DNA of 64,000 bases from Thermodesulfovibrionia bacterium (GTDB taxonomy: Bacteria > Nitrospirota > Thermodesulfovibrionia > UBA6902), in assembly GCA_945787795.1 (NCBI GenBank), contig CALZJD010000001.1, positions 5,776-69,775 on the forward strand, read 5' to 3'. The position numbers were made by a program, and so were the translations under genes. The notes below the pieces were generated by a model. It had not been told where the DNA came from and searched no databases. It saw nothing but the letters and a program-made list of their open reading frames with translations. This document shows, piece by piece, positions 35,246 through 53,743 of this stretch. The stretch's first letter is position 1, and the number at the start of each line of letters is the position of its first letter.

Positions 35246-36361
35246 TCATTGATCAGCCATAATAGCATGGAAAATGTCCAGTGTTTCTCTCGCTGCTTTA
35301 TCCCAACTGTATTTTTTCGTTCGACTGAACCCTTCGTTAATCATACTCTCTCTGAGATCTTTGTCTCTGATTACTTTCAAAACAGTTTCGGTAATATTGC
35401 CGACGTCCATAGGATCAACAAACATTGCAGCAGATCCCGCAATTTCAGGCGGAGCCCCTGTTTCAGAAGTCACTACAGGACACCCGCATGCCATAGCTTC
35501 AACAATCGGAATTCCGAAACCCTCGTACATGGATGGAAATAACAACAATTCTGCCATGCTGTAGATCGCCGGAAGATCTCTCTGGCTCACCCAGCCGGTA
35601 GGAACAATATCATCTTTTAACTCCAGTGATCTGATCTGATCATGGTACTCTTCAAAATCCATTTCCAGGTCACCTGCCGCTACTAATTTCACCGGTGCTT
35701 CAAGCTGATCTTTGATGAGCCTGAGGGATTTAATAACGTTCAGAAAATTTTTCCCCGGATAACTCTTTCCTATATAAAGGATGTATCTTTCCGGAAGATC
35801 AAATTTGCTCCGACAGTTCTCCAGTGTATCTTTGTCCCTGACCGGGATAAAATGGGGATCTGTGGCGGAATGTACTACATAAAGTTTCCTGGAGTCAACA
35901 CCTATATGATGTATTATGTCATCTGCAGTAAATCTTGATACAGAAGAAATCGCCGTAGCCTTTTTGCAGTACATCGGCATCATGATATTAATATAAAACC
36001 TGTCGATCATACCGCAATTCCCCGGGTGAACAAACCATTCAGAACCATGCATCACCATAACTGATTTCCTGCGGGTCAGCAGCGGTACCGTAAATTTGGT
36101 ATGAAATAGCAGATCTATTCTCTCACGACTCATTTCAATGGGTATTTTAATCTGGTCCCAGATGACTTTATTGTATGACTTAACAAGCTTTTCCTTCACA
36201 TGGCCATACTGTTTATAACGGCCGAGATACTCCGGGTTGCGGTAAAAGAGGACATATTCATTTTTATCGTCAAAAGGTATGATATGGTCCATCAGATTCT
36301 GCGTGTAGATACCAATCCCCTGTTTCTCATCTATTGTTCTCAGCATAACACCTATCCTCAT
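35246..36361 (-). CDS. Glycosyltransferase family 4
   Basis: 371-aa ORF with LLLFPSMYEGFGIPIVEAMACGCPVVTSETGAPPE (EX7E). Confidence 0.9.
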   Translation of the reverse strand: MRIGVMLRTIDEKQGIGIYTQNLMDHIIPFDDKNEYVLFYRNPEYLGRYKQYGHVKEKLVKSYNKVIWDQIKIPIEMSRERIDLLFHTKFTVPLLTRRKSVMVMHGSEWFVHPGNCGMIDRFYINIMMPMYCKKATAISSVSRFTADDIIHHIGVDSRKLYVVHSATDPHFIPVRDKDTLENCRSKFDLPERYILYIGKSYPGKNFLNVIKSLRLIKDQLEAPVKLVAAGDLEMDFEEYHDQIRSLELKDDIVPTGWVSQRDLPAIYSMAELLLFPSMYEGFGIPIVEAMACGCPVVTSETGAPPEIAGSAAMFVDPMDVGNITETVLKVIRDKDLRESMINEGFSRTKKYSWDKAARETLDIFHAIMADQ

Positions 36362-36427
36362 AAAACCTGGTCATTCCCCCGGAATAAAATTAGTATTTCG
36401 GGAATATCAGTGAATTGTTCACTTACA

Positions 36428-37912
36428 TCAGCCAACTATTTCAACACGATAATACCAGTAAAACTGCTGTTGACTGATATCTGATTCATCCTCTATCGCA
36501 CCACGAATCCCGAAGAGTCCGCGATCTATCCTCTGACTACGTTCTTCTGAAGTTAATTTGCCGATAACTTCAATACCGTTCACTCTGAAGCTGTTAATTG
36601 TATCCCGTTCAACATCGTGGTCAGCGACGATCTCATATTCCCCCTCCGACATCGAATATGGAAGAACTGAATCGGGAATGATTGTGTTTGTGCGGTATCC
36701 ATTTTTTCCGTCACCAACACGATACACTAATCCTCCGGCTTGCCCCGAACCGCCGACGTTCAGTAAAACACCAATAAAAGTAGAGTTAAACTCCTGAGGC
36801 CCGGAAGGGTCCGCAAGAATGAAAATACCCGCCTCCTGTCTGCCGGAGGATATCCTCATGCCAACACCCATAGACAGACTTACGCGAGTGGAGTACCGGA
36901 TTACTCCGGATTCAGGACTCGTCCTATCCTGGTAAAGCCTTGTGATATTAGTACCACTTCCTGGTGCTCTATAACGTATAGATGTCTGATACAGGTCTAT
37001 TTTCATGTCTCCTTCATGCACGGCCTCAATCCATCTATGCTGCTCTATTTTCCCCTGATTCAGATCGTCACTATTCTCCCTGTTAAAATAATCCCGAAAA
37101 ACAATACGGTCATCTACCGAGGGCGGTTCTGCCTTTTCAATAATCAATGAATTCATCCTTATGCTGTGGAAACCTTCATCTACAACTCTTTTCAGTTTAT
37201 TGGACACGCCCTTTGCATAAATGTGATCTTTGACAATCCATCTTACCCACCCCTGATACCATGTTCCTGAATGTCTCCAGCTCCATCCGGCATACGCGGG
37301 ATCGCCCACAACAATGCGAAGATGAGCGTCGGTCACCTCAACAAGGCCTGTCCCCTCTATTAAGAAGTTTCCCTTTACAGCAAGAGGGGCTCCGAAATTG
37401 GCGCCTGCAAATACAACATCATGTGAGCGGCATTTAAAACTGCGCTGATCCACTACGGGCAGAGGCCCTCCCGGGTTCACGGAAGCGCAGGTAACGCGAT
37501 ACCAGCCATCAGGAAGATCAATGCGGAAAACCATCGGCACATTGTCAAAGTGCGCGCCCTGCATATTTGAAAGTTCAAGACGTCCTGCTTCAGCAGGAGA
37601 TGTTATCGTGCCGTCATGAAGCTCAATTGCAGCATATTGGCCTCGGTCGCGGCCGTTGCCGGCCAGATCTGTCAGCCACCCATACCCCCGCGAACCACTA
37701 TAGATTGAGCCATCGTATTCTTCCCATCCTTCAGGATTGGGAGTCATGCGGCTTCCCTTGACTACAAAATTGATTTTCTTTATTATGCCCCTCATCCTGT
37801 CAACTCCATTTTCCGAAACCATATCTGACTGATAGTTATTTGCTGACACTACTGTTTGATAAAAAGATATCAAAAGGAGACAGGCACCGGCGACATAAAA
37901 CCTGCGCTTCAT
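36428..37912 (-). CDS. Secreted protein of unknown function (beta-sandwich / carbohydrate-binding-like)
   Basis: 494-aa ORF with the signal peptide MKRRFYVAGACLLLISFYQTVVSA. The GYGW...FRIDLPDGWYRVTCA pattern resembles lectin-like beta-sandwich modules, and I recognised no catalytic motif. The gene is markedly GC-rich (spot counts 39/60 at 37441-37500 and 38/60 at 37621-37680). A 4-nt overlap links it to the upstream carbamoyltransferase gene. Confidence 0.6.
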   Translation of the reverse strand: MKRRFYVAGACLLLISFYQTVVSANNYQSDMVSENGVDRMRGIIKKINFVVKGSRMTPNPEGWEEYDGSIYSGSRGYGWLTDLAGNGRDRGQYAAIELHDGTITSPAEAGRLELSNMQGAHFDNVPMVFRIDLPDGWYRVTCASVNPGGPLPVVDQRSFKCRSHDVVFAGANFGAPLAVKGNFLIEGTGLVEVTDAHLRIVVGDPAYAGWSWRHSGTWYQGWVRWIVKDHIYAKGVSNKLKRVVDEGFHSIRMNSLIIEKAEPPSVDDRIVFRDYFNRENSDDLNQGKIEQHRWIEAVHEGDMKIDLYQTSIRYRAPGSGTNITRLYQDRTSPESGVIRYSTRVSLSMGVGMRISSGRQEAGIFILADPSGPQEFNSTFIGVLLNVGGSGQAGGLVYRVGDGKNGYRTNTIIPDSVLPYSMSEGEYEIVADHDVERDTINSFRVNGIEVIGKLTSEERSQRIDRGLFGIRGAIEDESDISQQQFYWYYRVEIVG

Positions 37913-39696
37913 AAATCCTGCTTCTGCCGCACTTTCATTCTAACAAGCTTACGCGTTATTTCATATTTGTTTTTGACCAGGTAATTGCCGATAGCAAGAT
38001 AGTCCAGATGTCCAAGTTTAAAAGCCCTCAGAGCATCGTAGGGAGTACAGACAATCGGCTCTTCATGCATATTGAAGCTCGTGTTAATGATTACGGGCAC
38101 GCCTGTCAGGTCATCGAAAGCCTTTATTATATTATGGTAGCTTGGATTATCAGTGTTTCTCACAAGCTGGGGACGGGCTGTGTTGTCAATATGAACTACA
38201 CCGGCACAATGCTCCCTCATCCATTCTGTACAATTAAATGTAACTGTCATAAATCTTGCTGCATCTTCTGCACCCTTGAAATTCACAAAGCACTGCTCAG
38301 CCTTTTCATATAACACGGAAGGCGCAAAAGGCATGAATTCCGTTCTCACAAGGTTTTTATTAAGCCAGTCATTAACATTCGAATCAGAGGGATGGTAAAG
38401 GATTGATCGGTTGCCCAGCGCTCTGGGACCGTATTCCATTCTCCCGTTGAAGCGGGCGACTACATATCCCTCTGCCAGCAGTGATGCTATCTCTTTTTCT
38501 ATTTCTTCAAACCGCCTGTGTTTATAGCCCGCATCCTTTATGGCCGATTCAATTTCTGAATCATCAAACTCAAAGCCTAAATAAGCATCGTTAATAACAG
38601 GGGCTTGAGGGAATGCACCACTGGCGCTCATACTCTCCGCCCAGGACGCAAGCGCAGCACCTACAGCAAGACCCTCATCAGACATTCCGGGATGAATAAA
38701 TATATCTTCAACTTCTTCCAGTTCAAAAACTTCCTGGTTTATTCTTACGTTGGCAAATACTCCTCCGGCAAGGGCCAGTTTGGTCATCTTCGTTTTCTCC
38801 ATCCAGTACTTCACGTAATCTCTGCACAAATTCTCTGACAGCTTTTGAATACTGGAAGCGAGGTCATCTCTGCTGAAATTTTCACCTATCACATTTTTTA
38901 TTTTTTCTATGGCACTGTTGAAAAGCACACCGCCTGTATTTACCATTCTGCCCTTTGAACAGGAAATAAGCGAATTGATTGAATCGTAATATACAGGTTT
39001 CCCACGGGCAGCAAGACCTGTTATCTTGCCCTCATGCTTTTTTGCCTTAAAACCGCAGATCGCTGTTACGTATGCATAGTAATTACCGAGCGAATCATAA
39101 CTGTCGACTTTTGAAAGAAGTTCAAGTCTGCCGTCTTTTCCCAAATAAACATGAGAGGAGTTGCGGTCTCCGCCGCCGTCCATGGTAACAACCAGCCCGT
39201 CCTTGTAACCACTGGTAAAATAAGCAGAAGCAGCGTGAGTGTAATGGTGGTCATGGAAAGATACAGGGGCGTTTATTGAAAACTCATTACTGAGAATCTC
39301 TCTTATTCTTTTCCTTCTTTTAATGTTAATCGGTCTTCTTAGCAGATAATATAATGACTTGAGTACGGGAATACTGTTTGCCACTTTACTGAATTTCGAC
39401 GCAAAGTTAAAAAACAGATTATGTGTATCACGAATGTCCCCTCTTTCTTCAAACCAGCCTTTCCACTCTTTAATTTCCTCATTCAGTTTCATGTCAACCT
39501 GGGCTATGCCCACTGCATCGATACGGGTAGGCTCTATTCCTGCTATTTTCAACACGGCCTTTATTGAAGCGCGGGGAAATCCTCTTGCCTGTTTCAGTCT
39601 CACAAGTCTCTCCTCATTAATGGCTGCAACAATCGCTCCATCAACAATGACAGCAGCACCGCTTGTCTGACCGTCCGTAATTCCCAAAATTACCAT
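37909..39696 (-). CDS. Carbamoyltransferase (NodU/CmcH family)
   Basis: 595-aa ORF with MVILGITDGQTSGAAVIVDGAIVAAINEERLVRLK, FHDHHYTHAASAYFTSG and the C-terminal carbamoyltransferase region ...TSFNMHEEPIVCTP. Confidence 0.85.
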   Translation of the reverse strand: MVILGITDGQTSGAAVIVDGAIVAAINEERLVRLKQARGFPRASIKAVLKIAGIEPTRIDAVGIAQVDMKLNEEIKEWKGWFEERGDIRDTHNLFFNFASKFSKVANSIPVLKSLYYLLRRPINIKRRKRIREILSNEFSINAPVSFHDHHYTHAASAYFTSGYKDGLVVTMDGGGDRNSSHVYLGKDGRLELLSKVDSYDSLGNYYAYVTAICGFKAKKHEGKITGLAARGKPVYYDSINSLISCSKGRMVNTGGVLFNSAIEKIKNVIGENFSRDDLASSIQKLSENLCRDYVKYWMEKTKMTKLALAGGVFANVRINQEVFELEEVEDIFIHPGMSDEGLAVGAALASWAESMSASGAFPQAPVINDAYLGFEFDDSEIESAIKDAGYKHRRFEEIEKEIASLLAEGYVVARFNGRMEYGPRALGNRSILYHPSDSNVNDWLNKNLVRTEFMPFAPSVLYEKAEQCFVNFKGAEDAARFMTVTFNCTEWMREHCAGVVHIDNTARPQLVRNTDNPSYHNIIKAFDDLTGVPVIINTSFNMHEEPIVCTPYDALRAFKLGHLDYLAIGNYLVKNKYEITRKLVRMKVRQKQDL

Positions 39697-39742
39697 TCAC
39701 TATTCTCCTTCAGATTACCTTACCAGGCATATATTGTAACTG

Positions 39743-40723
39743 TTACATCCTCAGCCACTTGTCAATTTCTCCTATGGCCCTGCTCATTACCTTCCTGTCA
39801 TATATATTGAATCCGAGCACTCCCATTGAATTAAAGTAATGGTCAGAATTTTCTATCGTCATATATTTTTTCGGTTCACTCAACAACTCATAGTATTCTC
39901 TCAGGTATATCTTGTCCGGATCATTTTCAAGCTCACCATCAATAAGAAACAGGGGCTTATGAGTAGACTCCGAAAAATAGGGAATATATCGGGCCATATC
40001 AGAGGCGTTCTGTTTAAGCCATATCTCTTTTGTATACCATGTGGGGAACTCCTTTTTATAGACAAGCTTTCTGGTTTTCTGTGCTCTCTGCCAGAAATAC
40101 TCAACATCTTTCGGGTCCTCTGCTCTCTCCGATGACCGGCGAGGAGGTCCAATGGCAACAATTTTCCGAAAACCGTCTTCCTGAATCCCCATTTCAAATG
40201 CTGAGTCAGCTCCTCCGGAATGCCCTATAACATAGACTTCATCCTTATCAATATAATCAAGCTTGATCATATATGATAGTGCTGCCATGACATCTTTATT
40301 ATTATCCAGTGCCTCTACCGAGTCGAGTTGGAATGGATCATCAGATTCTCCGTACCCTGCGAAGTCTATTGTTAATACGATATATCCCATTTGAGCAAAT
40401 CTGCTCGCCATTATCAAATACATAGACAGTTTCCTGCCAAGTGGGGTATTGCCATGCAGCAAAATAATACCCGGCCTTTTTCCATCGCCCTTTACGCCAT
40501 AAAGACTTGCTGATATCCCGAGCCCGTCACTTCGTTTCAGTTTTATGTCTTTGTCCGGAAGGCAGAGGCAAAACCAGAGATCTGTAATATCATTTTTTTC
40601 AAGAAATTGTATAAGCCTTTGGGCTCTCCAGGGAAGTTTCTCTTTAATGTCATCCTTAAAAAGAAAAAGAAGAATGCCTGTAGAAATAAACAACAGGACT
40701 AAAACTGAAATGGCTTTTTTCAC
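39743..40723 (-). CDS. Alpha/beta-fold hydrolase with N-terminal membrane anchor
   Basis: 326-aa ORF with a TM segment (AISVLVLLFISTGILLFLF), ILLHGNTPLG, the nucleophile elbow VIGHSGGADSA (GxSxG) and a distal ENSDHYF. Confidence 0.7.
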   Translation of the reverse strand: MKKAISVLVLLFISTGILLFLFKDDIKEKLPWRAQRLIQFLEKNDITDLWFCLCLPDKDIKLKRSDGLGISASLYGVKGDGKRPGIILLHGNTPLGRKLSMYLIMASRFAQMGYIVLTIDFAGYGESDDPFQLDSVEALDNNKDVMAALSYMIKLDYIDKDEVYVIGHSGGADSAFEMGIQEDGFRKIVAIGPPRRSSERAEDPKDVEYFWQRAQKTRKLVYKKEFPTWYTKEIWLKQNASDMARYIPYFSESTHKPLFLIDGELENDPDKIYLREYYELLSEPKKYMTIENSDHYFNSMGVLGFNIYDRKVMSRAIGEIDKWLRM

Positions 40724-40780: not shown

Positions 40781-42724
40781 CTATGCCCCTGCCCTGCTTT
40801 CGTTATAGACACTAAGTACCACGTCCTCTACTTCTTCACGATTCATCCGCTCAATAAATAATCTGTGCCAGATTTCCATATTCAGCAGCATCCAGATCCT
40901 TACATGATTATCGATCTTATTGCTTCTATGTGACTCAATTAAATCCTTCACCTTTTCTTTACGAAAAATCCCTTCTTTTACAAAGTGGGATTCGAGAAGC
41001 ATTTTAGTAACAAAATCATAGAGCTCATTTCTAAACCAATAAGCTACAGGAAACATGAAGCCCTGTTTTTTCCGGCTTAAAATCTCACTCTGAAGATAAC
41101 GTTCGCCCAGTTTCCTCAGCACATATTTAAGGGTCCTGTTGCGTATCTTGATCGTGCTGGGAAATTTTGCAAGCGTTTCGACCAGTGCGTGATCCAGAAA
41201 CGGCGAGCGCGCTTCAAGACTATGGGCCATGTTCATTCTGTCAGTAAGCATCAAAGTATGTTCAGGCAGTCTCGTCATAAAATCCGCATAAAGCATTTTA
41301 TCAATCTGATCTTCTGCATTTGGTTTATCATATTGTTGAACAATCACGTCCGTTGAATTTATTTTCTTTAGACGGTTCCATATATCGGGGTGAAAAAGGG
41401 CGGCTTTATCGCTGTGATTAAAACGGAAGAAGGCTGTTGCCTCCGCATATCTCTCGCCATCTTCAAAAAAAGAGAGCTGGTTTACCCACCTCATCTTTTG
41501 TGTAGCGCTCTTATATGTAAAACTGTCCGGAATCATATCTACAAGAGGGGCGATCATTGACTTCCTCACAAAATCCGGGATCATTCGATAGTAACTGATC
41601 ATTCTTAATCCGGCATACCTGTCAAATCCCGCAAACAGCTCATCTCCCCCGTCGCCTCCCATCACGACCTTAACATGATGAGACGCAAGCCGGGCGCCAT
41701 GAAACATGCAGGCAGCTATGGGATCAGAAGGCTCATCCATGTGCCATATCATTTTAGTCAGGAGAGTTACAAGGTCGGCCTTGACCAGTTCTTCAACATG
41801 ATCGGTCTTATACTGCGAGGCTACCATCCTGGCATAAGGCAATTCATTGAAATCGTCCTCTTCCACACCAATAGCAAACGTTTTAAAATTTGATTTCAAA
41901 AGGCAGCCCATAACAGCTACCACCATACTGGTATCCATACCCCCGCTCAAAAAAGCGCCTATATCCACATCACTTACCAGGTGTGATTCAATGGCACTGG
42001 TCAGGTGTTCGTCCAGACACTCAATATATTCGTTGTCCGAGAGTAGAAGTTTTTCATTGAAATCAATATCCCAGTAACGGTCCAGCCGCACCTTTCCCTT
42101 CTGGAAAACAAGTATATGGGCCGGCGGTAATTTCTTTATTTTGTGAAACATTGTACCGGGAGAAGGAATAAACCTTAATGAAAAGTAATGATGAACAGAT
42201 TCATAGTCGATGTCCCTGTCGACTTCATTACCCGTCAGAATAGACTTGATTTCCGAAGCAAAATGAAAAATATTATTATCATAGAGATAGAAGACCGGTT
42301 TTTGCCCTAACCTGTCACGCGCAAGAAGCAGTTTCTGGTTTTTCTCATCCCAGATAGCAAACGCATACATTCCACTGAGTCTTTCAACACACCGGTCACC
42401 ATATTCCTCGAAGAGATGGATAATGACTTCCGTGTCTGACCTCGTCCTGAATGTATGTCCCCTGTTAATGAGTTCTGCTCTCAGCTCCCGGTAATTATAG
42501 ACCTCTCCGTTGCATACAATCCATACGGATTGATCTTCATTGCATATAGGCTGCTTTCCGCCTTCAAGGTCAATAATACTTAAGCGGCGATGTCCCAATC
42601 CAACCGGCCCCTTAATATAGTACCCTTCATCATCGGGACCTCGATGAACAAGCATGTTGTTCATAAGCATCATTTCTTCCCGGCTTACTCCGGATTTATT
42701 GATTTTTCCGCAGATACCACACAT
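40781..42724 (-). CDS. asnB: Asparagine synthase-family glutamine amidotransferase (paralog 2)
   Basis: 647-aa ORF with an MCGICG Cys nucleophile, RGPDD and an LSGGMDTS PP-loop. Confidence 0.9.
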   Translation of the reverse strand: MCGICGKINKSGVSREEMMLMNNMLVHRGPDDEGYYIKGPVGLGHRRLSIIDLEGGKQPICNEDQSVWIVCNGEVYNYRELRAELINRGHTFRTRSDTEVIIHLFEEYGDRCVERLSGMYAFAIWDEKNQKLLLARDRLGQKPVFYLYDNNIFHFASEIKSILTGNEVDRDIDYESVHHYFSLRFIPSPGTMFHKIKKLPPAHILVFQKGKVRLDRYWDIDFNEKLLLSDNEYIECLDEHLTSAIESHLVSDVDIGAFLSGGMDTSMVVAVMGCLLKSNFKTFAIGVEEDDFNELPYARMVASQYKTDHVEELVKADLVTLLTKMIWHMDEPSDPIAACMFHGARLASHHVKVVMGGDGGDELFAGFDRYAGLRMISYYRMIPDFVRKSMIAPLVDMIPDSFTYKSATQKMRWVNQLSFFEDGERYAEATAFFRFNHSDKAALFHPDIWNRLKKINSTDVIVQQYDKPNAEDQIDKMLYADFMTRLPEHTLMLTDRMNMAHSLEARSPFLDHALVETLAKFPSTIKIRNRTLKYVLRKLGERYLQSEILSRKKQGFMFPVAYWFRNELYDFVTKMLLESHFVKEGIFRKEKVKDLIESHRSNKIDNHVRIWMLLNMEIWHRLFIERMNREEVEDVVLSVYNESRAGA

Positions 42725-44599: not shown

Positions 44600-46480
44600 T
44601 CAGGCATGATAAAACCTCTCCATCCAGAGCTGAAAAAGCATCAGGCTCCATATCTGATGACTATTGTTCATTCTATTATCAAGATGGTCTTTCATCATCG
44701 TCTCAATATAATCGGGATTAAAGATCCCCTGTTTTTCTATACGGTCATATGAGAGCATATCGGTCATCATGGGTTTAACCGGGCCCTTGAGCCAGTTCTT
44801 CATTGGAATGCTGAAACCCTGTTTGGGCTTGTTTATCACATTATCAGGCAGCATCTTTTCCGTCATCTTCTTCAGCACATACTTTGTCTTAAAATTTTTT
44901 ATCTTTAAGTCCTGGGGGATTGAAAGGGCGAATTCCACAACCCTGTGGTCCAGAAAGGGAACCCTCGCCTCAAGAGACGTTGCCATACTCATCCTGTCGA
45001 CCTTGACAAGGATATTGTCCACGAGATATGTTTTAATATCTAAGTACATTGACCTGTTGATCCCGCAAAGCCTGTTCTTATCAAGGTATCTCGTGATGAA
45101 TGAAAATGCGCTGCCAGCATCGATGCTTCTGGAGACTTCATCACTGAAGATATGATTATTTTCTTCAGGTCTGAGGAATATCATCCAGCGGAAGTGATCA
45201 TATTGCTCAGGCATGGATGTCCCTCCTACAAAACGCTTAATCTTGTTGATCACTCCTTTCTTCTTTTCAGTGGGAGGCAGAATATTGGCAAGCGGCTGGA
45301 TGATATACTTCCTTAAATGAAAGGGGATCAATGAGTAATACCGGTAAAGTTTTTGTGCTATATATGTGTCATACCCCCCGAAAAGTTCATCTCCTCCATC
45401 CCCTGAAAGAATTACCTTTACTTTCTCCCTTGCCAGTCTTGATACTAAATATGTCGGGAAAATAGAAAAGTCACCGATGGGATCATCCATGTAATTGATA
45501 AGGTTTTCAATAAGGTCTATAGCAGAGGGCTCTATTACCTGGTCTGTATGATCTGTGCCAAACAGTCCAGCTACCTGTGCCGCATAACTCAGCTCGTTGT
45601 AGCTTTTATCATGAAAACCAATCGAGAATGTCTTCGGCTTACTATCAAGCAGTCCGGTCATTTGCCCCACAATTGAGCTTGAATCAATACCGCCACTCAG
45701 GAAGGCGCCAAAGGGCACATCAGACCTGAGACGTAATCTTACAGAGTCCCTAAGCAGAGATTCGAGCTCTTCAACAGTCTCTTCCTCCGACCGCTCCTTT
45801 TCCTCTATCTCTTCGGCGCTCCAGTATTGCCTGATCTTAACACCACTGCTATCTGCGTAGAGAAAATGACCGGGGGGAAGTTTTTTGATGCTCTGTATTA
45901 ATGTTCCCGGAAAGGGGATAAATTCAAAGGCCAGATACTGGGACAAGGCCTCAAGATCCAGTTCAAGGTCCAGGTTTTTTTCCTCCAATATTGCCTTGAT
46001 TTCTGAACCAAATATTAATCTATTCTTATCGAGCATGTAATAAAAAGGCTTGATGCCCAGCCTGTCGCGGGCACAGAATAGTTCTTTATTCTTTTCGTCC
46101 CAGATAGCAAATGCGAACATACCGTTTAAATATTTGAGGCATCCCTCTGAATACTCCTCATAGAGATGCAAGATAACTTCTGTGTCAGAATTTGTTTTGA
46201 AAGTATGGCCTTTTGTCACAAGATCTGGTCTCAGTTCCTTGTAATTATATATTTCTCCGTTAAATACTATATAAAGTGAGTTGTTCTCGTTGGAGATTGG
46301 CTGCTTTCCTGTTTCGAGATCAATAATGCTCAACCTTCTCATTCCTATTCCTATATTATCTTTTATATAACTTCCCACATCATCCGGCCCTCTGTGAACT
46401 ATGGTCTGACACATACTTTCTATGATATTTGTATCAACAGTTTCGCCATTAAGTTTCAGATATCCAACTATTCCACACAT
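44600..46480 (-). CDS. asnB: Asparagine synthase-family glutamine amidotransferase (paralog 3)
   Basis: 626-aa ORF with an MCGIVG Cys nucleophile, RGPDD and an LSGGIDSS PP-loop. Confidence 0.9.
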   Translation of the reverse strand: MCGIVGYLKLNGETVDTNIIESMCQTIVHRGPDDVGSYIKDNIGIGMRRLSIIDLETGKQPISNENNSLYIVFNGEIYNYKELRPDLVTKGHTFKTNSDTEVILHLYEEYSEGCLKYLNGMFAFAIWDEKNKELFCARDRLGIKPFYYMLDKNRLIFGSEIKAILEEKNLDLELDLEALSQYLAFEFIPFPGTLIQSIKKLPPGHFLYADSSGVKIRQYWSAEEIEEKERSEEETVEELESLLRDSVRLRLRSDVPFGAFLSGGIDSSSIVGQMTGLLDSKPKTFSIGFHDKSYNELSYAAQVAGLFGTDHTDQVIEPSAIDLIENLINYMDDPIGDFSIFPTYLVSRLAREKVKVILSGDGGDELFGGYDTYIAQKLYRYYSLIPFHLRKYIIQPLANILPPTEKKKGVINKIKRFVGGTSMPEQYDHFRWMIFLRPEENNHIFSDEVSRSIDAGSAFSFITRYLDKNRLCGINRSMYLDIKTYLVDNILVKVDRMSMATSLEARVPFLDHRVVEFALSIPQDLKIKNFKTKYVLKKMTEKMLPDNVINKPKQGFSIPMKNWLKGPVKPMMTDMLSYDRIEKQGIFNPDYIETMMKDHLDNRMNNSHQIWSLMLFQLWMERFYHA

Positions 46481-46501
46481 AATAATTATGTATTTAAAAA
46501 A

Positions 46502-48178
46502 TTAAAGTCCTGCGGGGACATATACGGCCTTTGTCTCTTCTTTCTCCTGTCTGATTCTTGCCTCATCCCAACCAAGTTCCTTTCCCATGATTTCAGCGGA
46601 TTCATTCAGGGCATTACCTCCAGGATTTTCCGCTGAACCAAGGTCTGTCCTTCGCAAAACTACATCGGACAATTTAAGGGCCATTTCATTGCGAACGCTG
46701 TTAACAATTTCAGCCCTAATTACTTCTGATGAACCGGAAATTGTCCGTAATAATCCCTGGTCTTCATCCATGTATTTCAGAATTTTGCTGTATTCCGAAC
46801 CGTAGTTGTGTACAAGATGCGTGACCACTTTTTCATCCATTCGTGTATTATCTATTGCATTTGACAAGTAATCAGTAAACTTCCCGGTCTCCCCGCCATA
46901 AAGAGGTATTTCTTCTGTCATACATTCAGGGGATGTTCTGCACAGCTTTTTACATATCAGATCAACCGTTTTTCCTGCGACGTGTCTGTGGGTGGTATAT
47001 TTCACACCAACCACGGTTATTAAACCACCAACATTATCTTCAATCGCGTGATCGTAAATTTTGTGCTGAGTTTCGAGATTGACCATTCCTGTATCCTGCC
47101 TGACTTCGGTCATCGGAAGCAGTCCCCCATGGAAAAAGCTGATCTCCTCCCTCCTGATATCCGCTGCCGGATAGGCTTTATTAACAGTTTTCAAGAATGC
47201 CCTTATTTCCGGTTCCCTGATCCTGAAGTCATCCGGTTCTCCATAATAGGGGAGATGGATTGTGCCGATGATCGTAAAATCTCTCCACGGGAGAAAAAAC
47301 AATATCTGGCTTCCTTTATAAATTGTTCCGTCTACCCTCTTATACGTATACGGGCCCGGCAGGCCAGCTGCGTGTTTAAGAAGTAGTCTCTTTTTCACAA
47401 CTATATTCATTGCGGATGAATGTAAAAACCGTTTTACAGTATTCCCGCCGTTTTGTTTTTTCAATATATCATCTATCCAGGGACCTCCAGCATTAACTAC
47501 AACTTTAGCCTGTATGTCAAAGGTATCGTCGCTTAATGTATCCCTGGCATTGACTCCTCTTATCCAGTTTCCGTCATTTAAAAAACCTTCACACTCAACA
47601 TAATTAGCAAACTGCGCTCCAGCCCCGGAAGCTGATAGTGCATATGAAAGAACGAGACGTTCAGTATTGAAACATTGGCAGTCATACCATAAAGCACCTC
47701 CTTTCATTTCCGCATTTTCATACCCGGGCACATACTCCTTTATCTCTTTTTTAGAAATTAACCGACCTCCGGGCACTGTTTTGTCATCACTGCTTAACCT
47801 GTTTCTATCAAAACCAATAAGGTCATTGGCCTGCAACGCCACAAATAAGGCAGTCCTGCTCTTCATTTTGTAACCATACGTCGGCATTATCACGGGAAGA
47901 GGAAAAACAAGATGGGGCGCTATATTCATAAGTACTGCACGTTCATGAATGGACTGTCTCATCCTCCTGAAGTCAAAACGCTGGAGATATCTTAATCCAC
48001 CATGAATTGTCTTCAGGCTGTTTGATGATGTTGCACCTGCAAAATCACCTTTTTCAATCAAGGCAACTTTAAGCCCTCTCAGCGCTGCATCCCAAGCAAT
48101 TGAGACACCATAAACTCCACCCCCGATTATGAGGACATCATATTGCTCATTTGACAGTATATTCAGGTCTCTTATCAT
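46502..48178 (-). CDS. FAD-dependent oxidoreductase of the glycerol-3-phosphate dehydrogenase/oxidase (GlpD/GlpO) family
   Basis: 558-aa ORF. YDVLIIGGGVYGVSIAWDAALRGLKVALIEKGDFAGATSSNSLKTIHGGLRYL is the GlpD-type dinucleotide fold plus the GG(L/I)RYL motif. The C-terminal region ...LKLSDVVLRRTDLG...LGWDEARIRQE resembles the GlpD C-terminal domain. Confidence 0.8.
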   Translation of the reverse strand: MIRDLNILSNEQYDVLIIGGGVYGVSIAWDAALRGLKVALIEKGDFAGATSSNSLKTIHGGLRYLQRFDFRRMRQSIHERAVLMNIAPHLVFPLPVIMPTYGYKMKSRTALFVALQANDLIGFDRNRLSSDDKTVPGGRLISKKEIKEYVPGYENAEMKGGALWYDCQCFNTERLVLSYALSASGAGAQFANYVECEGFLNDGNWIRGVNARDTLSDDTFDIQAKVVVNAGGPWIDDILKKQNGGNTVKRFLHSSAMNIVVKKRLLLKHAAGLPGPYTYKRVDGTIYKGSQILFFLPWRDFTIIGTIHLPYYGEPDDFRIREPEIRAFLKTVNKAYPAADIRREEISFFHGGLLPMTEVRQDTGMVNLETQHKIYDHAIEDNVGGLITVVGVKYTTHRHVAGKTVDLICKKLCRTSPECMTEEIPLYGGETGKFTDYLSNAIDNTRMDEKVVTHLVHNYGSEYSKILKYMDEDQGLLRTISGSSEVIRAEIVNSVRNEMALKLSDVVLRRTDLGSAENPGGNALNESAEIMGKELGWDEARIRQEKEETKAVYVPAGL

Positions 48179-48190
48179 ATATAAGCCGGC

Positions 48191-49384
48191 TTATTGCAAA
48201 AGTTTCAACAAACAACGCATCTTACTCTCATATACCCTTCGGGAATACTTCTCATCGTACAGCTGCAGCGCATTCTTAACTGTATGTTCATGGTTTCCTT
48301 TTTCGTTTAATGCAGAAATTATGCCACGTGCCATATCTTCCGGTTCAGGTTCAACCAGATAAGCCACACCCTCATCCAGTACTTGAGTATGGGAATATAT
48401 ATTAGTGGCTACAAGGGGAATTCCACTGGCAAGCTGCTCATAGATTTTTAAGGGCGTGTTAGTCCCTGCGCTCCGCGGTGACATTATGACCGATGCAAGA
48501 CTGTTATAATATTTGGCCATTGACTGGCTCACGCGCCCCCTAAAAAAGGAATTCTGCTGAAGACCCGTCTGGTCAGCAAGCTGCCTGTATTTTTTCACCT
48601 GTGAAGGCGTCCCTCCGACTACCAGCAAAAAGGCATCGGGATATTCACTCACAACCTTTTTAAACGCTCCAATAAGAATATCTATCCCCTGATAATGTTC
48701 CAGGGTTCCTGCATACACTACAAACCGTTTCCCTTCCGGCAGGATTGGAAGTGACTCTTCAGTTGAAGCCTGACCAGAACCCATTCCTGAGTTTGTCCCT
48801 TTTGCAGCTACCTTCACCGGCTCAAAGATCGAATTCTCTATCAGAAAATGTTTTTTCTTATCATCGATGAATTTCAGGGCATATTCCTCAAGGTCCGGAC
48901 ATATGGTAATTACTGCATCCGATTTTTTAAGACAGGTATCTTCGAGTTTCTTGAACAAGCCGATAAGAAACTTTGATTTTGTGAATTGAAAGTTGCTCAA
49001 CTGCTGGGGAAGACTTGAATGCATGTCATATACCAGCTTGAATCGGAAGAGCGGTTTAAAGAAGCGGCAATAAAATATCGATTCCTCATGGGCATGAACA
49101 AAGTCATACCGCTTTTGAATAAGAAGTGCTAATGTCCAGATCACCATAAAAATATCGAGAAAGAGCTTTAGCATGGAAGGGCCTGTCTTCACATTGCCCA
49201 GAAATGCAAATCTCGGTAATCTGATTATCCTGACCCCGGGGATATCAACATCCTCTCCCTCACCATAAGTCAGGAGATCTATTTTAACACCAAGCTCCGC
49301 TGTCACAAGTGAGCGGTAGTAGACACTGAATGGTGTACCCCTTGGTGAAAAAAACGGCTGCGGTGAAATCACCAAGGCTTTCAT
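48191..49384 (-). CDS. Glycosyltransferase family 4
   Basis: 397-aa ORF with GT-B organisation and the C-terminal motif GTNTPLKIYEQLASGIPLVATNIYS. A 4-nt overlap links it to the upstream gene. Confidence 0.8.
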   Translation of the reverse strand: MKALVISPQPFFSPRGTPFSVYYRSLVTAELGVKIDLLTYGEGEDVDIPGVRIIRLPRFAFLGNVKTGPSMLKLFLDIFMVIWTLALLIQKRYDFVHAHEESIFYCRFFKPLFRFKLVYDMHSSLPQQLSNFQFTKSKFLIGLFKKLEDTCLKKSDAVITICPDLEEYALKFIDDKKKHFLIENSIFEPVKVAAKGTNSGMGSGQASTEESLPILPEGKRFVVYAGTLEHYQGIDILIGAFKKVVSEYPDAFLLVVGGTPSQVKKYRQLADQTGLQQNSFFRGRVSQSMAKYYNSLASVIMSPRSAGTNTPLKIYEQLASGIPLVATNIYSHTQVLDEGVAYLVEPEPEDMARGIISALNEKGNHEHTVKNALQLYDEKYSRRVYESKMRCLLKLLQ

Positions 49385-50214
49385 TTTCCGATAGACACTT
49401 TTTTATGTCTTCTCTTCAACATCTGCATTAGAATTTGATTTCGAATAAAAAGATGCGGCCTCTCCAGATGACCATAGGTCTCGATACGCGTTGCCGGCTC
49501 CTGGAGTAAACCTTTAATAGTCATTGCGGGATAGTCAGGAATGATGGAGTCCTTTATGAAAAAACCGAAACTGCCCGCTTTATGGCACTCATGTTCAAAA
49601 GGCAATGGATCACTACCGGGAAGTATTCTTATCCCCCTGATCTCAGCCAGACTGAAATGAGACGGGCATGACCAGAATGCCGGCCTGCCTCCATTATCCC
49701 CTAAAAACAGGCATTGTTCATCTGATGCTTTTAAATATTCTTCCAGTATCTCCCCCCTGCGCCCCAGCCACTTGCCTGCCCCCCAGGGTATAACCGGGAC
49801 AGCGTCTGCCTGGAGAGTTTTCCCTATTGTGTCCATTAGGGGATATCCGTCTTCGATAAACTTATCAGTTGCCAGGGCCAGCACCTCGAGGTTCTCGGCG
49901 GTTACAATCTGACGGCCAGCCATGATGAACAGATCACGTCCATCGTTCCGTTTTGCATATATTGAACAGTTCTCTTTTGTATGGTGAAAGGTCCAGTCTG
50001 GAATAATATTTTTATCAGTATGCCCGTTGATAGATTCCCATATTTGTTTGAACTTATTGTCATTGCTCGTTTCTGTTAAAAACAGTACAGCTGAAAACCT
50101 GCTTCCGTTATTAAGCCGTGAAGCTTCGGTGCTGAAGTTCAAAACAGCTGCGTTTAAAAATACCGGCAGGTCAAAGCAGTCATAGATATGCACGTGTGCA
50201 TCAGCTAATATCAT
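49381..50214 (-). CDS. Conserved-looking hypothetical protein, possible metal-dependent (PHP/amidohydrolase-like) hydrolase
   Basis: 277-aa ORF, tightly coupled on both sides. The N-terminal ILADAHVHIYD (HxH) and distal ILPGSDPLP weakly recall PHP-type phosphoesterases. I could not make a confident family assignment by eye. Confidence 0.45.
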   Translation of the reverse strand: MILADAHVHIYDCFDLPVFLNAAVLNFSTEASRLNNGSRFSAVLFLTETSNDNKFKQIWESINGHTDKNIIPDWTFHHTKENCSIYAKRNDGRDLFIMAGRQIVTAENLEVLALATDKFIEDGYPLMDTIGKTLQADAVPVIPWGAGKWLGRRGEILEEYLKASDEQCLFLGDNGGRPAFWSCPSHFSLAEIRGIRILPGSDPLPFEHECHKAGSFGFFIKDSIIPDYPAMTIKGLLQEPATRIETYGHLERPHLFIRNQILMQMLKRRHKKVSIGK

Positions 50215-50227
50215 ATGGTCGATTGAT

Positions 50228-51184
50228 CTATATAATCTTTTCGATCACAAATTCTTTCTTTTTCCGGCCATGGGTGAACACAATAATCTCGCCTAAAAGG
50301 CCTACACTGGCTGACTGAATGCCGAGCAACATAAAGAAAAATGACAATAACAGAGAAGGGCGATTGCCGATCGGGATCTCGTATATAAGTTTTTGAGCAA
50401 CAATAAATGTGGTTATTATAAATCCGGTTAATATAAAAAAGACGCCGATAGATATAAAAAATCGCAATGGTTTTTTGGAAAATGAAGTATTAAAGTAAAG
50501 AGTAAAAATATCAATTAATCTGTTAACATATATCGGTACATGATAAAATCCCGCCTTTGCCTGCCTGGGTTCACCATGCTCTCTGTAGTGTTCACACATA
50601 ATTTCTTTACATGTAAACCCTTTTCGGGCTGCATATACTGGGAAAAATCTGTACATGTTTCCATATAACTCCGTCTCCTCAATTACCTCTCTCCTAAATA
50701 CACTGACATTACAGCTCAGGTCAAACATCTTAATTCCGGTAATCCATCTTACTATTGCATTGAACAGATTGGATTGCATTTTATAAAAAGAAGGATCAAA
50801 CCTGTTTAGCCTGCAAGGACTGATTATGTCGGATTCATCACTCACGGCATCAAGTATCTGGTTAAAAGACTTAACTGTGAGCTGCTGGTAAGCACCACTG
50901 GCAAAAATATATTTACCACCGATCTCTTTTAAAACTGACTTAAGGCATATTGCATAAGACGTCTTTTTGCTCATCTCGAAGACTTTGGTTTTGTGATTAG
51001 GCATATAATTATTTTTATACAGTTTTTTTAAAAATCCGCCGGTCCCATTCGCAATAATGACCACTTCAAACGTATCCGACCTTGAGCTGAACACATTAAT
51101 TATTGTCTTTAAATAGCGTGGGAAATCTTCGTTCTTCTTATCCAGCAAAAAAACAACTGAATATTCTACTGATACTTGTTTCAT
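50228..51184 (-). CDS. GtrB/ArnC-like GT2 paralog with degenerate catalytic motifs (probable pseudo-enzyme)
   Basis: 318-aa ORF, collinear with the neighbour 51181-52134 (for example YGNMYRFFPVYAARKG vs YGEMHRFLPALASLTG) and with two C-terminal TM helices. FEVVIIANGTGG replaces YEVIFVDDGSTD, and IFASGAYQQ replaces ITLDGDMQN. An ATGA overlap links it to the upstream gene. Confidence 0.7.
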   Translation of the reverse strand: MKQVSVEYSVVFLLDKKNEDFPRYLKTIINVFSSRSDTFEVVIIANGTGGFLKKLYKNNYMPNHKTKVFEMSKKTSYAICLKSVLKEIGGKYIFASGAYQQLTVKSFNQILDAVSDESDIISPCRLNRFDPSFYKMQSNLFNAIVRWITGIKMFDLSCNVSVFRREVIEETELYGNMYRFFPVYAARKGFTCKEIMCEHYREHGEPRQAKAGFYHVPIYVNRLIDIFTLYFNTSFSKKPLRFFISIGVFFILTGFIITTFIVAQKLIYEIPIGNRPSLLLSFFFMLLGIQSASVGLLGEIIVFTHGRKKKEFVIEKII

Positions 51185-52134
51185 TCTGCGTCGCCTTTCA
51201 TCGTTATAGTCTTCTTTGTAACTTCAGGCATTTTAGTGTGAGACAGGTCGCTCGTGCCAACCACAAGTTCTCCCAGAACACCGAGAGCAATCAGATGTGA
51301 TACGGCCATTCCGTTTAATGCCGTGACAACCATGAAAAAAACTGATTTCCCCGAGGTCCAGTCAAGCATGACAGAAAGACCGCTAAGGATCCCAAAACAT
51401 ACTGTCAGTAAAATAAACGGCAGTGCGCAAATAACAAATCCTTTCAATGGTGTTGAAGAAAAACCGATTATCAGACTAATGCCAATAATATCACTAAAAA
51501 CCTTAAAGATACGGTTAAAGCCGTATTTCGAATCACCGTATTTTCTTGGATGATGTTTAACCGGTATTTCTGTCACTCTGGCCCCTGTTAAACTTGCTAG
51601 TGCAGGTAAAAATCTATGCATCTCTCCATATGCATTCAACGGTTTTATGCATTCAGATCGGTAAGCCTTCAATGTACAGCCATAATCATTCAACTTCACT
51701 CCGGTAGTCAATGAGATAATTGCATTAGCAATCCTGGAAGGAAATACTCGTGAAAAATTATCTTTTCTGTTTTTGCGCCAACCGCTGACAATATCGTTAC
51801 CCTCATCCAATTTTTCTAAAAGGGACGGGATATCAGACGGGTCATTCTGCATGTCTCCATCCAATGTAATGATTATATTACCCGTTGCATAATCAAATCC
51901 GGCAACCATAGCGCTTGTTTGACCATAATTACGACGTAATTTGATACTTCTTAATTTTGGATTTGATTTTTTTAATTTTTCAATGACCTTCCAGGTTATG
52001 TCTGTTGATCCATCATCTACAAAAATAACTTCATAAGCAAGAAAAAGTTTTTGGAGTTCAGTATCAATTTTGTAAAAAAGCGCCTCTACATTCTGCCATT
52101 CATTATATAATGGAACCACAACAGACAAATCCAT
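51181..52134 (-). CDS. Polyprenyl-phosphate glycosyltransferase (GT2, GtrB/ArnC/DPM1-like)
   Basis: 317-aa ORF with LSVVVPLYNEWQNV, YEVIFVDDGSTD, GQTSAMVAGFDYATGNIIITLDGDMQNDP and DIVSGWRKNRKD, plus two C-terminal TM helices. Confidence 0.9.
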   Translation of the reverse strand: MDLSVVVPLYNEWQNVEALFYKIDTELQKLFLAYEVIFVDDGSTDITWKVIEKLKKSNPKLRSIKLRRNYGQTSAMVAGFDYATGNIIITLDGDMQNDPSDIPSLLEKLDEGNDIVSGWRKNRKDNFSRVFPSRIANAIISLTTGVKLNDYGCTLKAYRSECIKPLNAYGEMHRFLPALASLTGARVTEIPVKHHPRKYGDSKYGFNRIFKVFSDIIGISLIIGFSSTPLKGFVICALPFILLTVCFGILSGLSVMLDWTSGKSVFFMVVTALNGMAVSHLIALGVLGELVVGTSDLSHTKMPEVTKKTITMKGDAE

Positions 52135-52147
52135 GATATTAATATCC

Positions 52148-52384
52148 TTAAATCTTCTTTTTGATATCGTCCAGTTTGTGTTTGTAGCTTGTATAACAGG
52201 TTTTATTGCAGCAGAACTCAGAGCACATCTTTAAACTCCGATTAGACATGCATTCCCCTGATTGTTTAGTTCTTCCGAGCATTAGAGGTTTCTCATTCTG
52301 GCGCTTCTGGTCAGAAATGATAACTTGATCTATCTGTAACTCTTTAGAAACAGTTTCCATTATATTAAGAGCAACTATTTGCAC
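52148..52384 (-). CDS. Small Cys-rich ORF of doubtful coding status
   Basis: 78 codons with a GTG start. GGAG lies only 2 nt upstream, and the internal ATG at 52360 has no SD. The C-terminal half is CMSNRSLKMCSEFCCNKTCYTSY. The ORF ends 13 nt before the GT2 start and would be the first ORF of the operon. Confidence 0.25.
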   Translation of the reverse strand: MQIVALNIMETVSKELQIDQVIISDQKRQNEKPLMLGRTKQSGECMSNRSLKMCSEFCCNKTCYTSYKHKLDDIKKKI

Positions 52385-53738: not shown

Positions 53739-53743
53739 TTGTA

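Follow-up and report, generated by a model that had tools for sequence, protein, structure and literature searches.

Within a 64,000-nucleotide stretch of contig CALZJD010000001.1 from a Thermodesulfovibrionia bacterium (hereafter the window), we find a run of minus-strand genes at 40781-52134 that, as judged from its sequence and its recurrence across phyla, is a real, conserved and uncharacterised glycan-tailoring module, an accessory modification unit within an exopolysaccharide (EPS) locus. The core of this cassette is a quartet of genes encoding a protein with an N-terminal DxHxH motif (the HxH protein), a GT-B glycosyltransferase (GT4a), a flavoenzyme of the GlpD/GlpO family (the GlpD-like enzyme) and an extended short-chain dehydrogenase/reductase (SDR). 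In 59 of 80 genome loci, drawn from Cyanobacteria, Nitrospirota, Desulfobacterota, Gammaproteobacteria, Planctomycetota and other groups, all four genes share a strand and fit within 8 kb, with a median span of 6.3 kb. On balance, we favor the view that the genes act as a single functional cassette that tailors a glycan at the stage of a lipid-linked unit; that they perform the specific oxidation/reduction chemistry of DprE1 and DprE2 is an analogy that we put forward tentatively and consider doubtful.

The cassette opens a 17-kb block whose gene content indicates a composite, with a conserved part of ~11 kb (40781-52134) and a variable tail (35246-40723). The open reading frame (ORF) list and translations give, between 52134 and 35246, 14 minus-strand ORFs of substantial length, and hidden Markov model searches on each product returned, almost one for one, the enzyme families that a preliminary description of this DNA had named. 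In the direction of transcription the features of the block are:

52135-52655, minus strand: intergenic leader of 521 nt between an ATPase gene and GT2a, likely promoter region
51181-52134, minus strand: GT2a, ArnC/GtrB-type polyprenyl-phosphate glycosyltransferase (NF007986 2e-60, PF00535)
50228-51184, minus strand: GT2b, degenerate GT2a paralogue (weak ArnC match 6e-21, no Pfam match)
49381-50214, minus strand: HxH protein, 277 residues, N-terminal DxHxH (no Pfam or NCBIfam match)
48191-49384, minus strand: GT4a, GT-B glycosyltransferase (TIGR04063-like 3e-23, below cutoff)
46502-48178, minus strand: GlpD-like flavoenzyme with DAO and DAO_C domains (PF01266 3e-41, PF16901 2e-28)
44600-46480, minus strand: AsnB1 (TIGR01536 522 bits, above cutoff)
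43740-44552, minus strand: S-adenosylmethionine-dependent methyltransferase (MT), 270 residues (PF08241, Methyltransf_11)
42749-43732, minus strand: extended SDR (PF01370 3e-40)
40781-42724, minus strand: AsnB2, last gene of the conserved part (TIGR01536 475 bits)
39743-40723, minus strand: membrane-anchored alpha/beta hydrolase (Abhydrolase, Hydrolase_4 and Peptidase_S9 matches; transmembrane residues 1-26)
37909-39696, minus strand: NodU/CmcH-family O-carbamoyltransferase, CmcH (PF16861 2e-60 and PF02543 3e-43)
36428-37912, minus strand: secreted lectin-like protein, 494 residues, with a signal-peptide-like N-terminus (no Pfam match)
35246-36361, minus strand: GT4b (PF00534 6e-35)

The junctions are as previously stated, with 4-nt overlaps at 51184/51181, 49384/49381 and 37912/37909 and otherwise gaps of 7 to 66 nt, and a gap of 253 nt (34993-35245) lies past the last gene, GT4b. 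The longest ORF of MT, 43740-44651, overlaps AsnB1 by 52 nt, an artefact of calling the longest frame; MT starts at Met34, as in its orthologue in a 79%-identical relative (L085). Fifteen to sixteen coupled ORFs had been counted between 52384 and 35246, beginning with a small Cys-rich ORF of 78 residues with a GTG start (52148-52384). The 14 substantial ORFs stand. The 78-residue ORF does not, as it has no family match in NCBIfam, tblastn against 92 related loci returned nothing at E<0.5 and the syntenic relative L089 has only ~216 nt at this position; we dropped it as a gene and, since it lacks homologues, take the region as a non-coding leader or promoter region. A consensus promoter scan of the block gave counts at the level of shuffled sequence, and every terminator-like site found in a scan of the block lies within a gene.

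Relatives of the HxH protein, collected by a pattern scan that took one genome per species, occur in at least 225 species genomes. The carriers include numerous filamentous Cyanobacteria (Moorena, Lyngbya, Planktothrix, Calothrix and Symploca), Nitrospirota, Nitrospinae, Desulfobacterota, Syntrophobacteria, Deferribacteres and Calditrichaceae, as well as the gammaproteobacterial Thiotrichaceae, Methylococcaceae and Woeseiaceae; Planctomycetota carriers came from a metagenome look-up. Cultured carriers are Moorena producens, Lyngbya sp. PCC 8106, Planktothrix, Capilliphycus salinus and Altericista sp. For 84 loci, 80 of them counted as genome loci, ORFs were called and matched to the window proteins and among themselves, and co-occurrence was judged within 10-kb flanks. 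In the 45 loci that have full 10-kb flanks, the quartet lies within 8 kb in 34. The genes found beside that for HxH are:

GT4a: 79 of 84 loci, 32 cyanobacterial ones as two half-size ORFs
SDR: 75-77 of 84 loci
GlpD-like enzyme: 73 of 84 loci
hexapeptide acyltransferase: 54 of 84 loci
YdjM membrane hydrolase: 33 of 84 loci
GT2a: 28 of 84 loci
second methyltransferase type: 26 of 84 loci
AsnB: 23-25 of 84 loci
LPG_synthase_TM flippase-like gene: 16 of 84 loci
PMT_2-type GT-C glycosyltransferase: 11 of 84 loci, often adjoining GT2a; not orthologous to the GT-C of the window
GT2b: 10 of 84 loci

The halved GT4 of the 32 cyanobacterial loci consists of N- and C-terminal Rossmann halves in adjacent ORFs (for example L001:10864-12185); because the arrangement is conserved, it seems to represent a true enzyme in two pieces and not a pseudogene.

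Gene order is also retained over long distances. The order GT2-GT2′-HxH-GT4-GlpD-like-AsnB-(MT)-SDR, or one similar to it, is found in a Planctomycetota metagenome-assembled genome (MAG), in L085 and in the metagenomic contigs L089-L092. The Planctomycetota MAG reads Exosortase-EpsI-GT2-GT2-GT4-HxH-DAO-AsnB-MT-SDR-MT-AsnB, while L089, to which L090 and L091 are similar, reads primGT-export-chain length-kinase-OMP-ATPase-GT2-GT2′-HxH-GT4-DAO-AsnB-SDR (primGT, priming glycosyltransferase; OMP, outer-membrane protein). In the Nitrospirota MAG L082 the order HxH-GT4a-AsnB-GlpD-like-MT-SDR-AsnB follows export genes, without the GT2 pair and with an AsnB ahead of the GlpD-like gene, and in L085 a hexapeptide transferase follows the SDR, giving that locus a different tail. 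The preliminary description took the whole block as one coupled operon and named a lack of conservation as a unit in related genomes as grounds for refutation. The HxH/GT4/GlpD-like/SDR core withstands that test; the 17 kb as a whole, with its variable tail, is not one conserved unit. These data bear directly on the simplest alternative, an ordinary mosaic in which unrelated EPS and housekeeping genes happen to adjoin, with a normal GlpD as the flavoenzyme and GT2b as a duplicate in decay. EPS loci are notoriously mosaic and the variable tail fits such an account, but cross-phylum conservation of gene order, together with the natural gene fusions described next, contradicts it, and we regard it as very improbable.

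The HxH protein is, by its gene associations, the hub of the cassette. Previously called an orphan, it proved to have homologues in 2,330 clusters, typically at ~50% identity and none of them named or assigned a Pfam domain, and within the family D5, H7, H9, E81, E110, D173 and D202 are invariant. An AlphaFold (AF2) model (30 homologues; pLDDT 92, pTM 0.89) gave Foldseek matches with probabilities of at least 0.99 and TM-scores of ~0.5-0.6 to PsfC (7rty, the best match), the TM0559 phosphoesterase (2anu), EndoQ and the RNase AM PHP domain, with 5zb8 and 7ug9 among the entries. The modeled fold is that of a divergent member of the PHP superfamily, a distorted TIM barrel of the metal-dependent phosphoesterase type, and the N-terminal D-x-H-x-H motif is shared with these metallo-enzymes as well. 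Unlike them, the protein shows only two invariant histidines and has no sequence-level counterpart, as neither the Pfam and NCBIfam models nor a search of the PDB with a profile of the family returned a match. From the model, phosphoesterase activity is likely, though not assured.

Two kinds of natural gene fusion involve this protein. In P0252, a protein of 859 residues, the whole of HxH is matched by residues 8-279 (E 2e-42), and the rest of the chain shares 62% identity with the GlpD-like enzyme of the window. This fusion is present on four contigs, its places having been read in one JGI and one ENA sample (L091:6384-8963 and L092:6333-8912), in the neighborhood primGT-deacetylase-UDP-Glc dehydrogenase-GT2-GT2-[fusion]-GT4-MT-MT-SDR-MT-LPG_synthase_TM-hexapeptide transferase. 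In eight cyanobacterial genomes (L010, L013, L029, L039, L041, L043, L063 and L081, at ~10000-11600), HxH is instead fused at its C-terminus to a methyltransferase that in other cyanobacteria is encoded by a separate gene following HxH. The fusions tie HxH functionally to the flavoenzyme and to a methyltransferase and indicate that all three work on one substrate or within one complex.

Over its full length the GlpD-like enzyme can be aligned with GlpO (2rgh, 2e-52), with GlpD of E. coli (2qcu, 3e-42) and with 3da1. It has their DAO plus DAO_C architecture, their flavin adenine dinucleotide (FAD) motif and, in E. coli numbering, His50, Arg54 and Lys354, all of which are retained in the subfamily. 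By contrast, its scores fall under the curated GlpD cutoffs (259 versus 360 bits for NF008899 and 247 versus 352 for NF009906), its gene neighborhoods are always those of glycan biosynthesis and never contain glp genes, and two pocket residues are exchanged. Arg317, which we take to contact the substrate phosphate in GlpD/GlpO structures, is Leu in the window and is replaced, mostly by Leu, in the ~70 orthologues compared from related loci (GVRPL to GLLP), while His233 is Asn in the window and throughout the subfamily (KGxH to A(M/W)N). The consistent loss of the arginine that binds a phosphate monoester points to a substrate other than a phosphomonoester, and hence to an enzyme that is not a housekeeping GlpD. 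These features define, at the level of sequence, a distinct GlpD/GlpO subfamily with an altered substrate pocket. Orthologues in Nitrospirota, KSB1, Planctomycetota and Calditrichaeota MAGs are named “glycerol-3-phosphate dehydrogenase/oxidase” in NCBI and JGI, which would speak for a normal GlpD in a mosaic locus; given that the active-site substitutions are consistent in ~70 orthologues and that the score lies under the curated cutoff, this annotation of the cassette flavoenzymes is a probable systematic misannotation.

Upstream of the core in the window lie the two GT2 genes. GT2a matches the ArnC structure 9bhc (8e-57) and GtrB (5eke, 6e-35) over its full length, its DDGS and DGD (DGDxQND) motifs are intact and it has a C-terminal transmembrane (TM) hairpin, all of which mark it as an ArnC/GtrB-type polyprenyl-phosphate glycosyltransferase. 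In GT2b, DDGS has become ANGT and DGD has become SGA, while the C-terminal TM hairpin is retained. All eight GT2b orthologues in other loci, at 28-40% identity, likewise lack the DxD and keep the hairpin, a pattern that argues for a maintained pseudo-enzyme and not for the decaying duplicate that an ordinary mosaic would contain. The 4-nt overlap of the two genes indicates that GT2b is translationally coupled to GT2a. We know of no conserved catalytically dead partner of GtrB or ArnC, and GT2b would be the first conserved pseudo-enzyme partner of an enzyme of this type. The preliminary description built its proposal on a polyprenyl-phosphate-sugar synthase together with a flavin oxidase and an SDR. 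As to the type of synthase, GT2a bears this out; as to its place, no more than about a third of the loci have GT2a close to the quartet, and the universal core transferase, by its distribution, is GT4a.

The GtrA/GtrB and ArnC/ArnD/ArnEF/ArnT systems are thus partial parallels. They are matched by GT2a, a full-length homologue with DxD and TM hairpin, by a GT-C gene in the window, and by the polysaccharide-deacetylase (of the ArnD-like family), flippase-like and GT-C genes that co-occur in related loci. They differ in that the cassette has the dead partner GT2b and lacks homologues of GtrA and ArnE/F, that 30 kb separate it from the GT-C gene, and that about two thirds of the loci have no GT2a close to the quartet. 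Searches of the window found no homologue of LPG_synthase_TM, GtrA or ArnEF. The GT-C gene, announced previously, was recovered by PMT_2/PMT matches:

19268-21292, minus strand: PMT_2-type GT-C (PF13231 and PF02366; ~12 or more TM segments)

This GT-C may be a periplasmic user of the GT2a product. Its gene is coupled by a 19-nt overlap to that of a membrane GT2 (21274-22491), which a methyltransferase gene (22475-23128) overlaps in turn; in structure this GT2 is closest to PcManGT (6yv7), a mannosyltransferase from archaea, and not to GtrB. A supply of the GT-C donor by this coupled GT2 was considered; since it is PcManGT-like rather than GtrB-like, GT2a stays a candidate source of the donor for the GT-C.

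Residues 69-90 of GT4a form a hydrophobic patch, and the protein shows weak matches to PimA and MshA in the PDB and weak similarity to an N-acetylglucosaminyl-phosphatidylglycerol synthase model. Such a transferase might also make a glycolipid anchor: GT4a would attach a sugar to a glyceride or to the headgroup of a glycerophospholipid, the glycerol of that phosphodiester would be oxidized by the GlpD-like enzyme, the SDR, methyltransferase and acyltransferase would remodel it and YdjM and LPG_synthase_TM would handle the lipid, giving a product that primes or anchors the EPS or serves as acceptor for exosortase-processed PEP-CTERM proteins. The exchange of Arg317, mostly for Leu, fits a phosphodiester; 33 loci have YdjM and 16 have LPG_synthase_TM; and the cassette stays constant while neighboring glycosyltransferases vary, which fits a primer or anchor better than the decoration of a repeat unit. 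The window itself has a YdjM gene, located 14 kb from the cassette and outside the 17-kb block:

25649-26191, minus strand: YdjM-family membrane metal-hydrolase (PF04307 3e-19)

The YdjM orthologues of the 33 loci are 41-49% identical to it, and in cyanobacteria they stand inside the cassette as GlpD-like-YdjM-HxH-SDR. A 180-residue gene after the SDR in L089 was considered as a further YdjM orthologue and ruled out on comparison.

Location gives this explanation mixed support. The cassette lies directly behind exosortase and EpsI in the Planctomycetota MAG and adjoins core genes of the XrtA system in six further loci. However, we had to give up exosortase adjacency as a general rule, as an exosortase is present within 10 kb only in L002-L004; neither XrtA nor a PEP-CTERM protein is encoded in the window; and many cyanobacterial loci resemble ordinary Wzx-dependent EPS clusters. 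The similarities to lipid-acting enzymes are, moreover, all weak. We therefore hold a glycolipid anchor to be distinctly unlikely.

The remaining cassette enzymes would modify the sugar. The SDR, a reductase or epimerase, has the TGxxGxxG and YxxxK motifs; its best NCBIfam models are HpnA-like (1.5e-38) and OleD-like, and its PDB matches at ~1e-20 include the UDP-glucuronic acid 4-epimerases 6zl6 and MoeE5 (6kv9), with 4,6-dehydratases about equal. AsnB1 and AsnB2 keep the Cys2 nucleophile and the PP-loop (SGGxDS in AsnB1), and AsnB1, a glutamine-dependent amidotransferase, probably turns a carboxylate into a carboxamide. In the other loci AsnB directly adjoins GT4a or the GlpD-like gene in 23-25 of 84; the AsnB2 position is orthologous in L002, L005, L016 and L082, and orthologues of MT are found in L002/L003, L082 and L085. 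In addition, the locus contains a third AsnB, and the three paralogues (6573-8441, 40781-42724 and 44600-46480) score 575-632 bits with the XrtA amidotransferase model TIGR03108, AsnB1 at 625 and AsnB2 at 575 bits, under its cutoff of 817; AsnB1 and AsnB2 both pass TIGR01536.

Precedents for such tailoring are known in moenomycin unit F (MoeE5, MoeF5/MoeH5, MoeM5 and MoeK5) and in the uronamide-forming WbpS-type enzymes of O-antigens. The moenomycin set has clear parallels in the window, namely a uronate-epimerase-like SDR with MoeE5 among its top PDB matches, two AsnB proteins, a NodU/CmcH protein and a methyltransferase, so that the earlier statement that this gene combination lacks a known counterpart holds for the core but, with this partial precedent, less well for the tailoring set of paired AsnB, carbamoyltransferase, methyltransferase and SDR. 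The cassette might accordingly tailor a soluble precursor. The SDR would be a UDP-uronate 4-epimerase, a glycosyltransferase would add the uronic acid, AsnB would form the uronamide, CmcH would carbamoylate and MT would methylate it, while HxH and the GlpD-like enzyme would separately make a C3 substituent or aglycone (glycerol or glycerate) from a dephosphorylated glycerol-phosphate derivative. This account explains the full gene set of the window well; a UDP-glucose dehydrogenase adjoins the cassette in L091, the loss of Arg317 fits a dephosphorylated glyceryl substrate supplied by the fused PHP-like domain, and MshA and PimA, the nearest structures to GT4a, use phospho-polyol acceptors. Its weakness is distribution. 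CmcH occurs in only one of 84 loci (L070) and AsnB in about a quarter, for which reason the core function cannot be uronamide and carbamate chemistry, and the window carbamoyltransferase belongs to the variable tail. In addition, the SDR scores higher with lipid-acting SDR models of the HpnA/OleD type than with those of the GalE type, and the cassette has no nucleotidyltransferase or kinase to activate a C3 unit. Moenomycin itself is a phosphoglycolipid antibiotic of Streptomyces rather than an EPS, and is made without a GlpD-like enzyme, a PHP-like protein or a GT2 pair. We judge soluble-precursor tailoring to be possible but rather unlikely. A compatible-solute route of the glucosylglycerol type (glycosyltransferase, phosphatase and GlpD) was ranked low, with many of the loci lying among priming-transferase, export, Wzx and glycan genes.

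In the lipid-linked reading that we favor, the enzymes of the cassette would act together, on the cytoplasmic side of the inner membrane, to make a modified glycosyl unit on a lipid-phosphate carrier; the absence of signal peptides from the core cassette enzymes is consistent with the cytoplasmic side. GT2a, in a hetero-oligomer with GT2b, and/or GT4a would load a sugar onto the phosphate-linked carrier. The HxH metal-enzyme and then the GlpD-like dehydrogenase would act in consecutive steps, the latter oxidizing a hydroxyl beta to the phosphodiester, for example the C2-OH of a polyprenyl-phospho-sugar, and passing the electrons to quinone. The C2-OH of a glycosyl-1-phospho-polyprenol and that of glycerol-3-phosphate have the same local geometry. 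The SDR would reduce the keto intermediate, for a net epimerization or deoxygenation chemistry, AsnB would convert carboxylates to carboxamides, MT would methylate and, in other genomes, the acyltransferase would decorate the unit. The tail would add strain-specific steps (an esterase, O-carbamoylation, an extra GT4 transfer and the secreted lectin-like protein). The finished unit would be flipped and then built into or added to the EPS, through Wzx/Wzy or through a flippase and a GT-C (possibly that at 19268-21292), the cassette and tail being inserted in a Wzx/Wzy EPS locus immediately behind its genes for export and regulation. A lipid-linked donor route is compatible with the co-occurrence of LPG_synthase_TM in 16 loci and of a PMT_2 GT-C, often beside GT2a, in 11.

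A route in which a transferase, a phosphatase, an FAD oxidase and an SDR act on a polyprenyl-phosphate-sugar has been described for Rv3806c, Rv3807c, DprE1 and DprE2 and for three-component pentofuranose systems (PMC11127046). The decaprenyl-phosphate-arabinose route shares its logic with the cassette, that is, a lipid-phosphate-sugar transferase, a phosphoesterase, FAD-dependent oxidation beside the anomeric phosphate, reduction by an SDR, a flippase and a GT-C. The counterparts would be GT2/GT4, the PHP-like HxH protein, the GlpD-like enzyme and the SDR, with flippase-like and GT-C genes in a subset of loci. In particular, the PHP-superfamily fold of HxH makes the analogy to the mycobacterial route closer. 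None of these proteins is homologous, however. The cassette has a DAO/GlpD and not a VAO flavoenzyme, an extended and not a classical SDR, a PHP-like and not a PAP2/HAD phosphoesterase, and GT-A GT2 or GT4 enzymes that use nucleoside diphosphate (NDP)-sugars in place of a UbiA-type phosphoribosyl pyrophosphate transferase; no model for a VAO-type oxidase or a UbiA-type transferase matched among the scanned window ORFs. The likeness to DprE1/DprE2 is thus plausible as an analogy of logic, not as family membership. That the cassette represents a convergent DprE1/DprE2 counterpart, in which an Arg317-less, quinone-linked GlpD-family flavoenzyme, a PHP-like partner and an SDR produce a new lipid-linked donor or anchor in many diderm phyla, possibly an exosortase-associated primer or acceptor, is a bolder conjecture that we think improbable. 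No characterized pathway for the combination of flavoenzyme, SDR and GtrB-like enzyme turned up in the literature searched, as the preliminary description had supposed; nor did any publication describing the cassette.

Several observations weigh against a lipid-linked pathway built around these enzymes. An undecaprenyl-phosphate-sugar formed from an NDP-sugar carries no additional phosphate on which a phosphatase could act. As just 28 of 84 loci have GT2a within 10 kb of the quartet, the core may not need a polyprenyl-phosphate-monosaccharide. The SDR could, by its matches, act on a nucleotide sugar. Of the canonical PHP His/Asp set, only motif I (D5/H7/H9) is invariant in the HxH family, the other candidate ligands being carboxylates. 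Hydrolase activity is also not assured because PsfC, the best structural match, is an oxidative di-iron enzyme and not a hydrolase (PMC12871164). The hexapeptide acyltransferase found in 54 of 84 loci elsewhere is absent from the window. Finally, that the block forms one transcript is suggested solely by its gene spacing.

If the lipid-linked oxidation and reduction is as proposed, the strategy of DprE1/DprE2, which is a major target of tuberculosis drugs, would be widespread and have evolved independently. Environmental EPS loci, such as those of flocs, mats, cyanobacterial sheaths and biofilms, are mostly black boxes, and here a cassette within them is conserved across phyla. The HxH family, with more than 2,300 clusters and no Pfam or NCBIfam model, is a gap in the reference libraries, and the chemistry of the cassette, once solved, would correct the GlpD annotation and add activities to the GlpD and PHP families.

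As to the setting of the cassette, the gene content of the whole 64-kb window is that of an XrtA/PEP-CTERM-type EPS locus. All ORFs of at least 150 residues are on the minus strand, except two plus-strand ORFs nested in minus-strand genes. Eight XrtA-system markers score above NCBIfam curated cutoffs, among them PrsT (564 versus 312 bits), the TIGR03015 ATPase (358 versus 324) and the TIGR03006 deacetylase (392 versus 276):

59612-62401, minus strand, upstream of the block: PrsT
upstream of the block: TIGR03013 priming transferase, TIGR03027 export protein and TIGR03007 chain-length determinant
upstream of the block: TIGR03018 tyrosine kinase and TIGR03016 outer-membrane protein
52656-53747, minus strand, upstream of the block: TIGR03015 ATPase
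24776-25624, minus strand, downstream of the block: TIGR03006 XrtA-system deacetylase

Downstream of the block there are also WecB, two Wzx flippases, a Wzy/O-antigen-ligase-like protein, further glycosyltransferases and methyltransferases, and the third AsnB. Among window ORFs of at least 150 residues, none matched the NCBIfam models for the XrtA exosortase and no window ORF ends in a PEP-type tail; the genes for exosortase and substrates may lie outside the 64 kb. No Rfam family was found in the window. The reference system named in a recent preprint is zooglan (10.64898/2025.12.21.693542). The window resembles XrtA/PEP-CTERM EPS loci of the zooglan (Zoogloea) and methanolan type, the exosortase A system of Haft, in its full marker set, its Wzx and Wzy-like genes and its AsnB-type amidotransferases, and differs from them in lacking XrtA and PEP-CTERM substrates and in an insertion of ~27 kb, including the cassette, between the ATPase and deacetylase genes. 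The cassette is also present in cyanobacterial loci in which no XrtA-system marker was detected within 10 kb. The literature retrieved on such loci makes no mention of the cassette.

The G+C content is 0.41-0.46 at ~32-50 kb and at 24-28 kb, compared with 0.33-0.39 over most of the window and an island of 0.33 at 28-32 kb. This pattern suggests a mosaic of horizontally assembled segments within the EPS locus, and the raised value at ~32-50 kb is compatible with acquisition of the block as a unit. The nearest relatives of the window are MAG or metagenome sequences with 57-79% identity.

Within the variable tail, the alpha/beta hydrolase, which starts it, is semi-conserved, with homologues in eight Oscillatoriales-type loci only, and GT4b has homologues in 7-8 loci. 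The 494-residue GC-rich secreted protein has no homologue in the 80 genome loci of the cassette. It was previously listed as an orphan, a label that does not hold, as it has at least 193 homologues, although no Pfam model. Its AF2 model (pLDDT 80) is a two-domain beta-sandwich for which Foldseek returned L-type lectin/ConA-like carbohydrate-recognition domains, so that the protein is, by its modeled fold, secreted and lectin-like. Relatives elsewhere adjoin SGNH/AlgX-like and PMT_2 genes, not CmcH.

Three further genes of the locus deserve mention. The longest ORF of WecB (23466-24935) shares 160 nt with the deacetylase gene and has an unmatched N-terminal extension of at least ~50 residues; its true start is probably an internal Met. 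The gene between YdjM and a Wzx gene encodes a 901-residue protein (26445-29150) in which DUF5060 is combined with a collagen-binding-like domain and fn3 domains; it may act in EPS processing or as a secreted glycoside hydrolase. Finally, an 860-residue protein resembling PEP synthase and rifampin phosphotransferase is encoded within the EPS locus at 3652-6234, with an ATP-grasp and a swivelling phosphohistidine domain. The Campylobacter glutamine kinase Cj1418 belongs to the same family, and the predicted protein could phosphorylate the glycan or a precursor of it.

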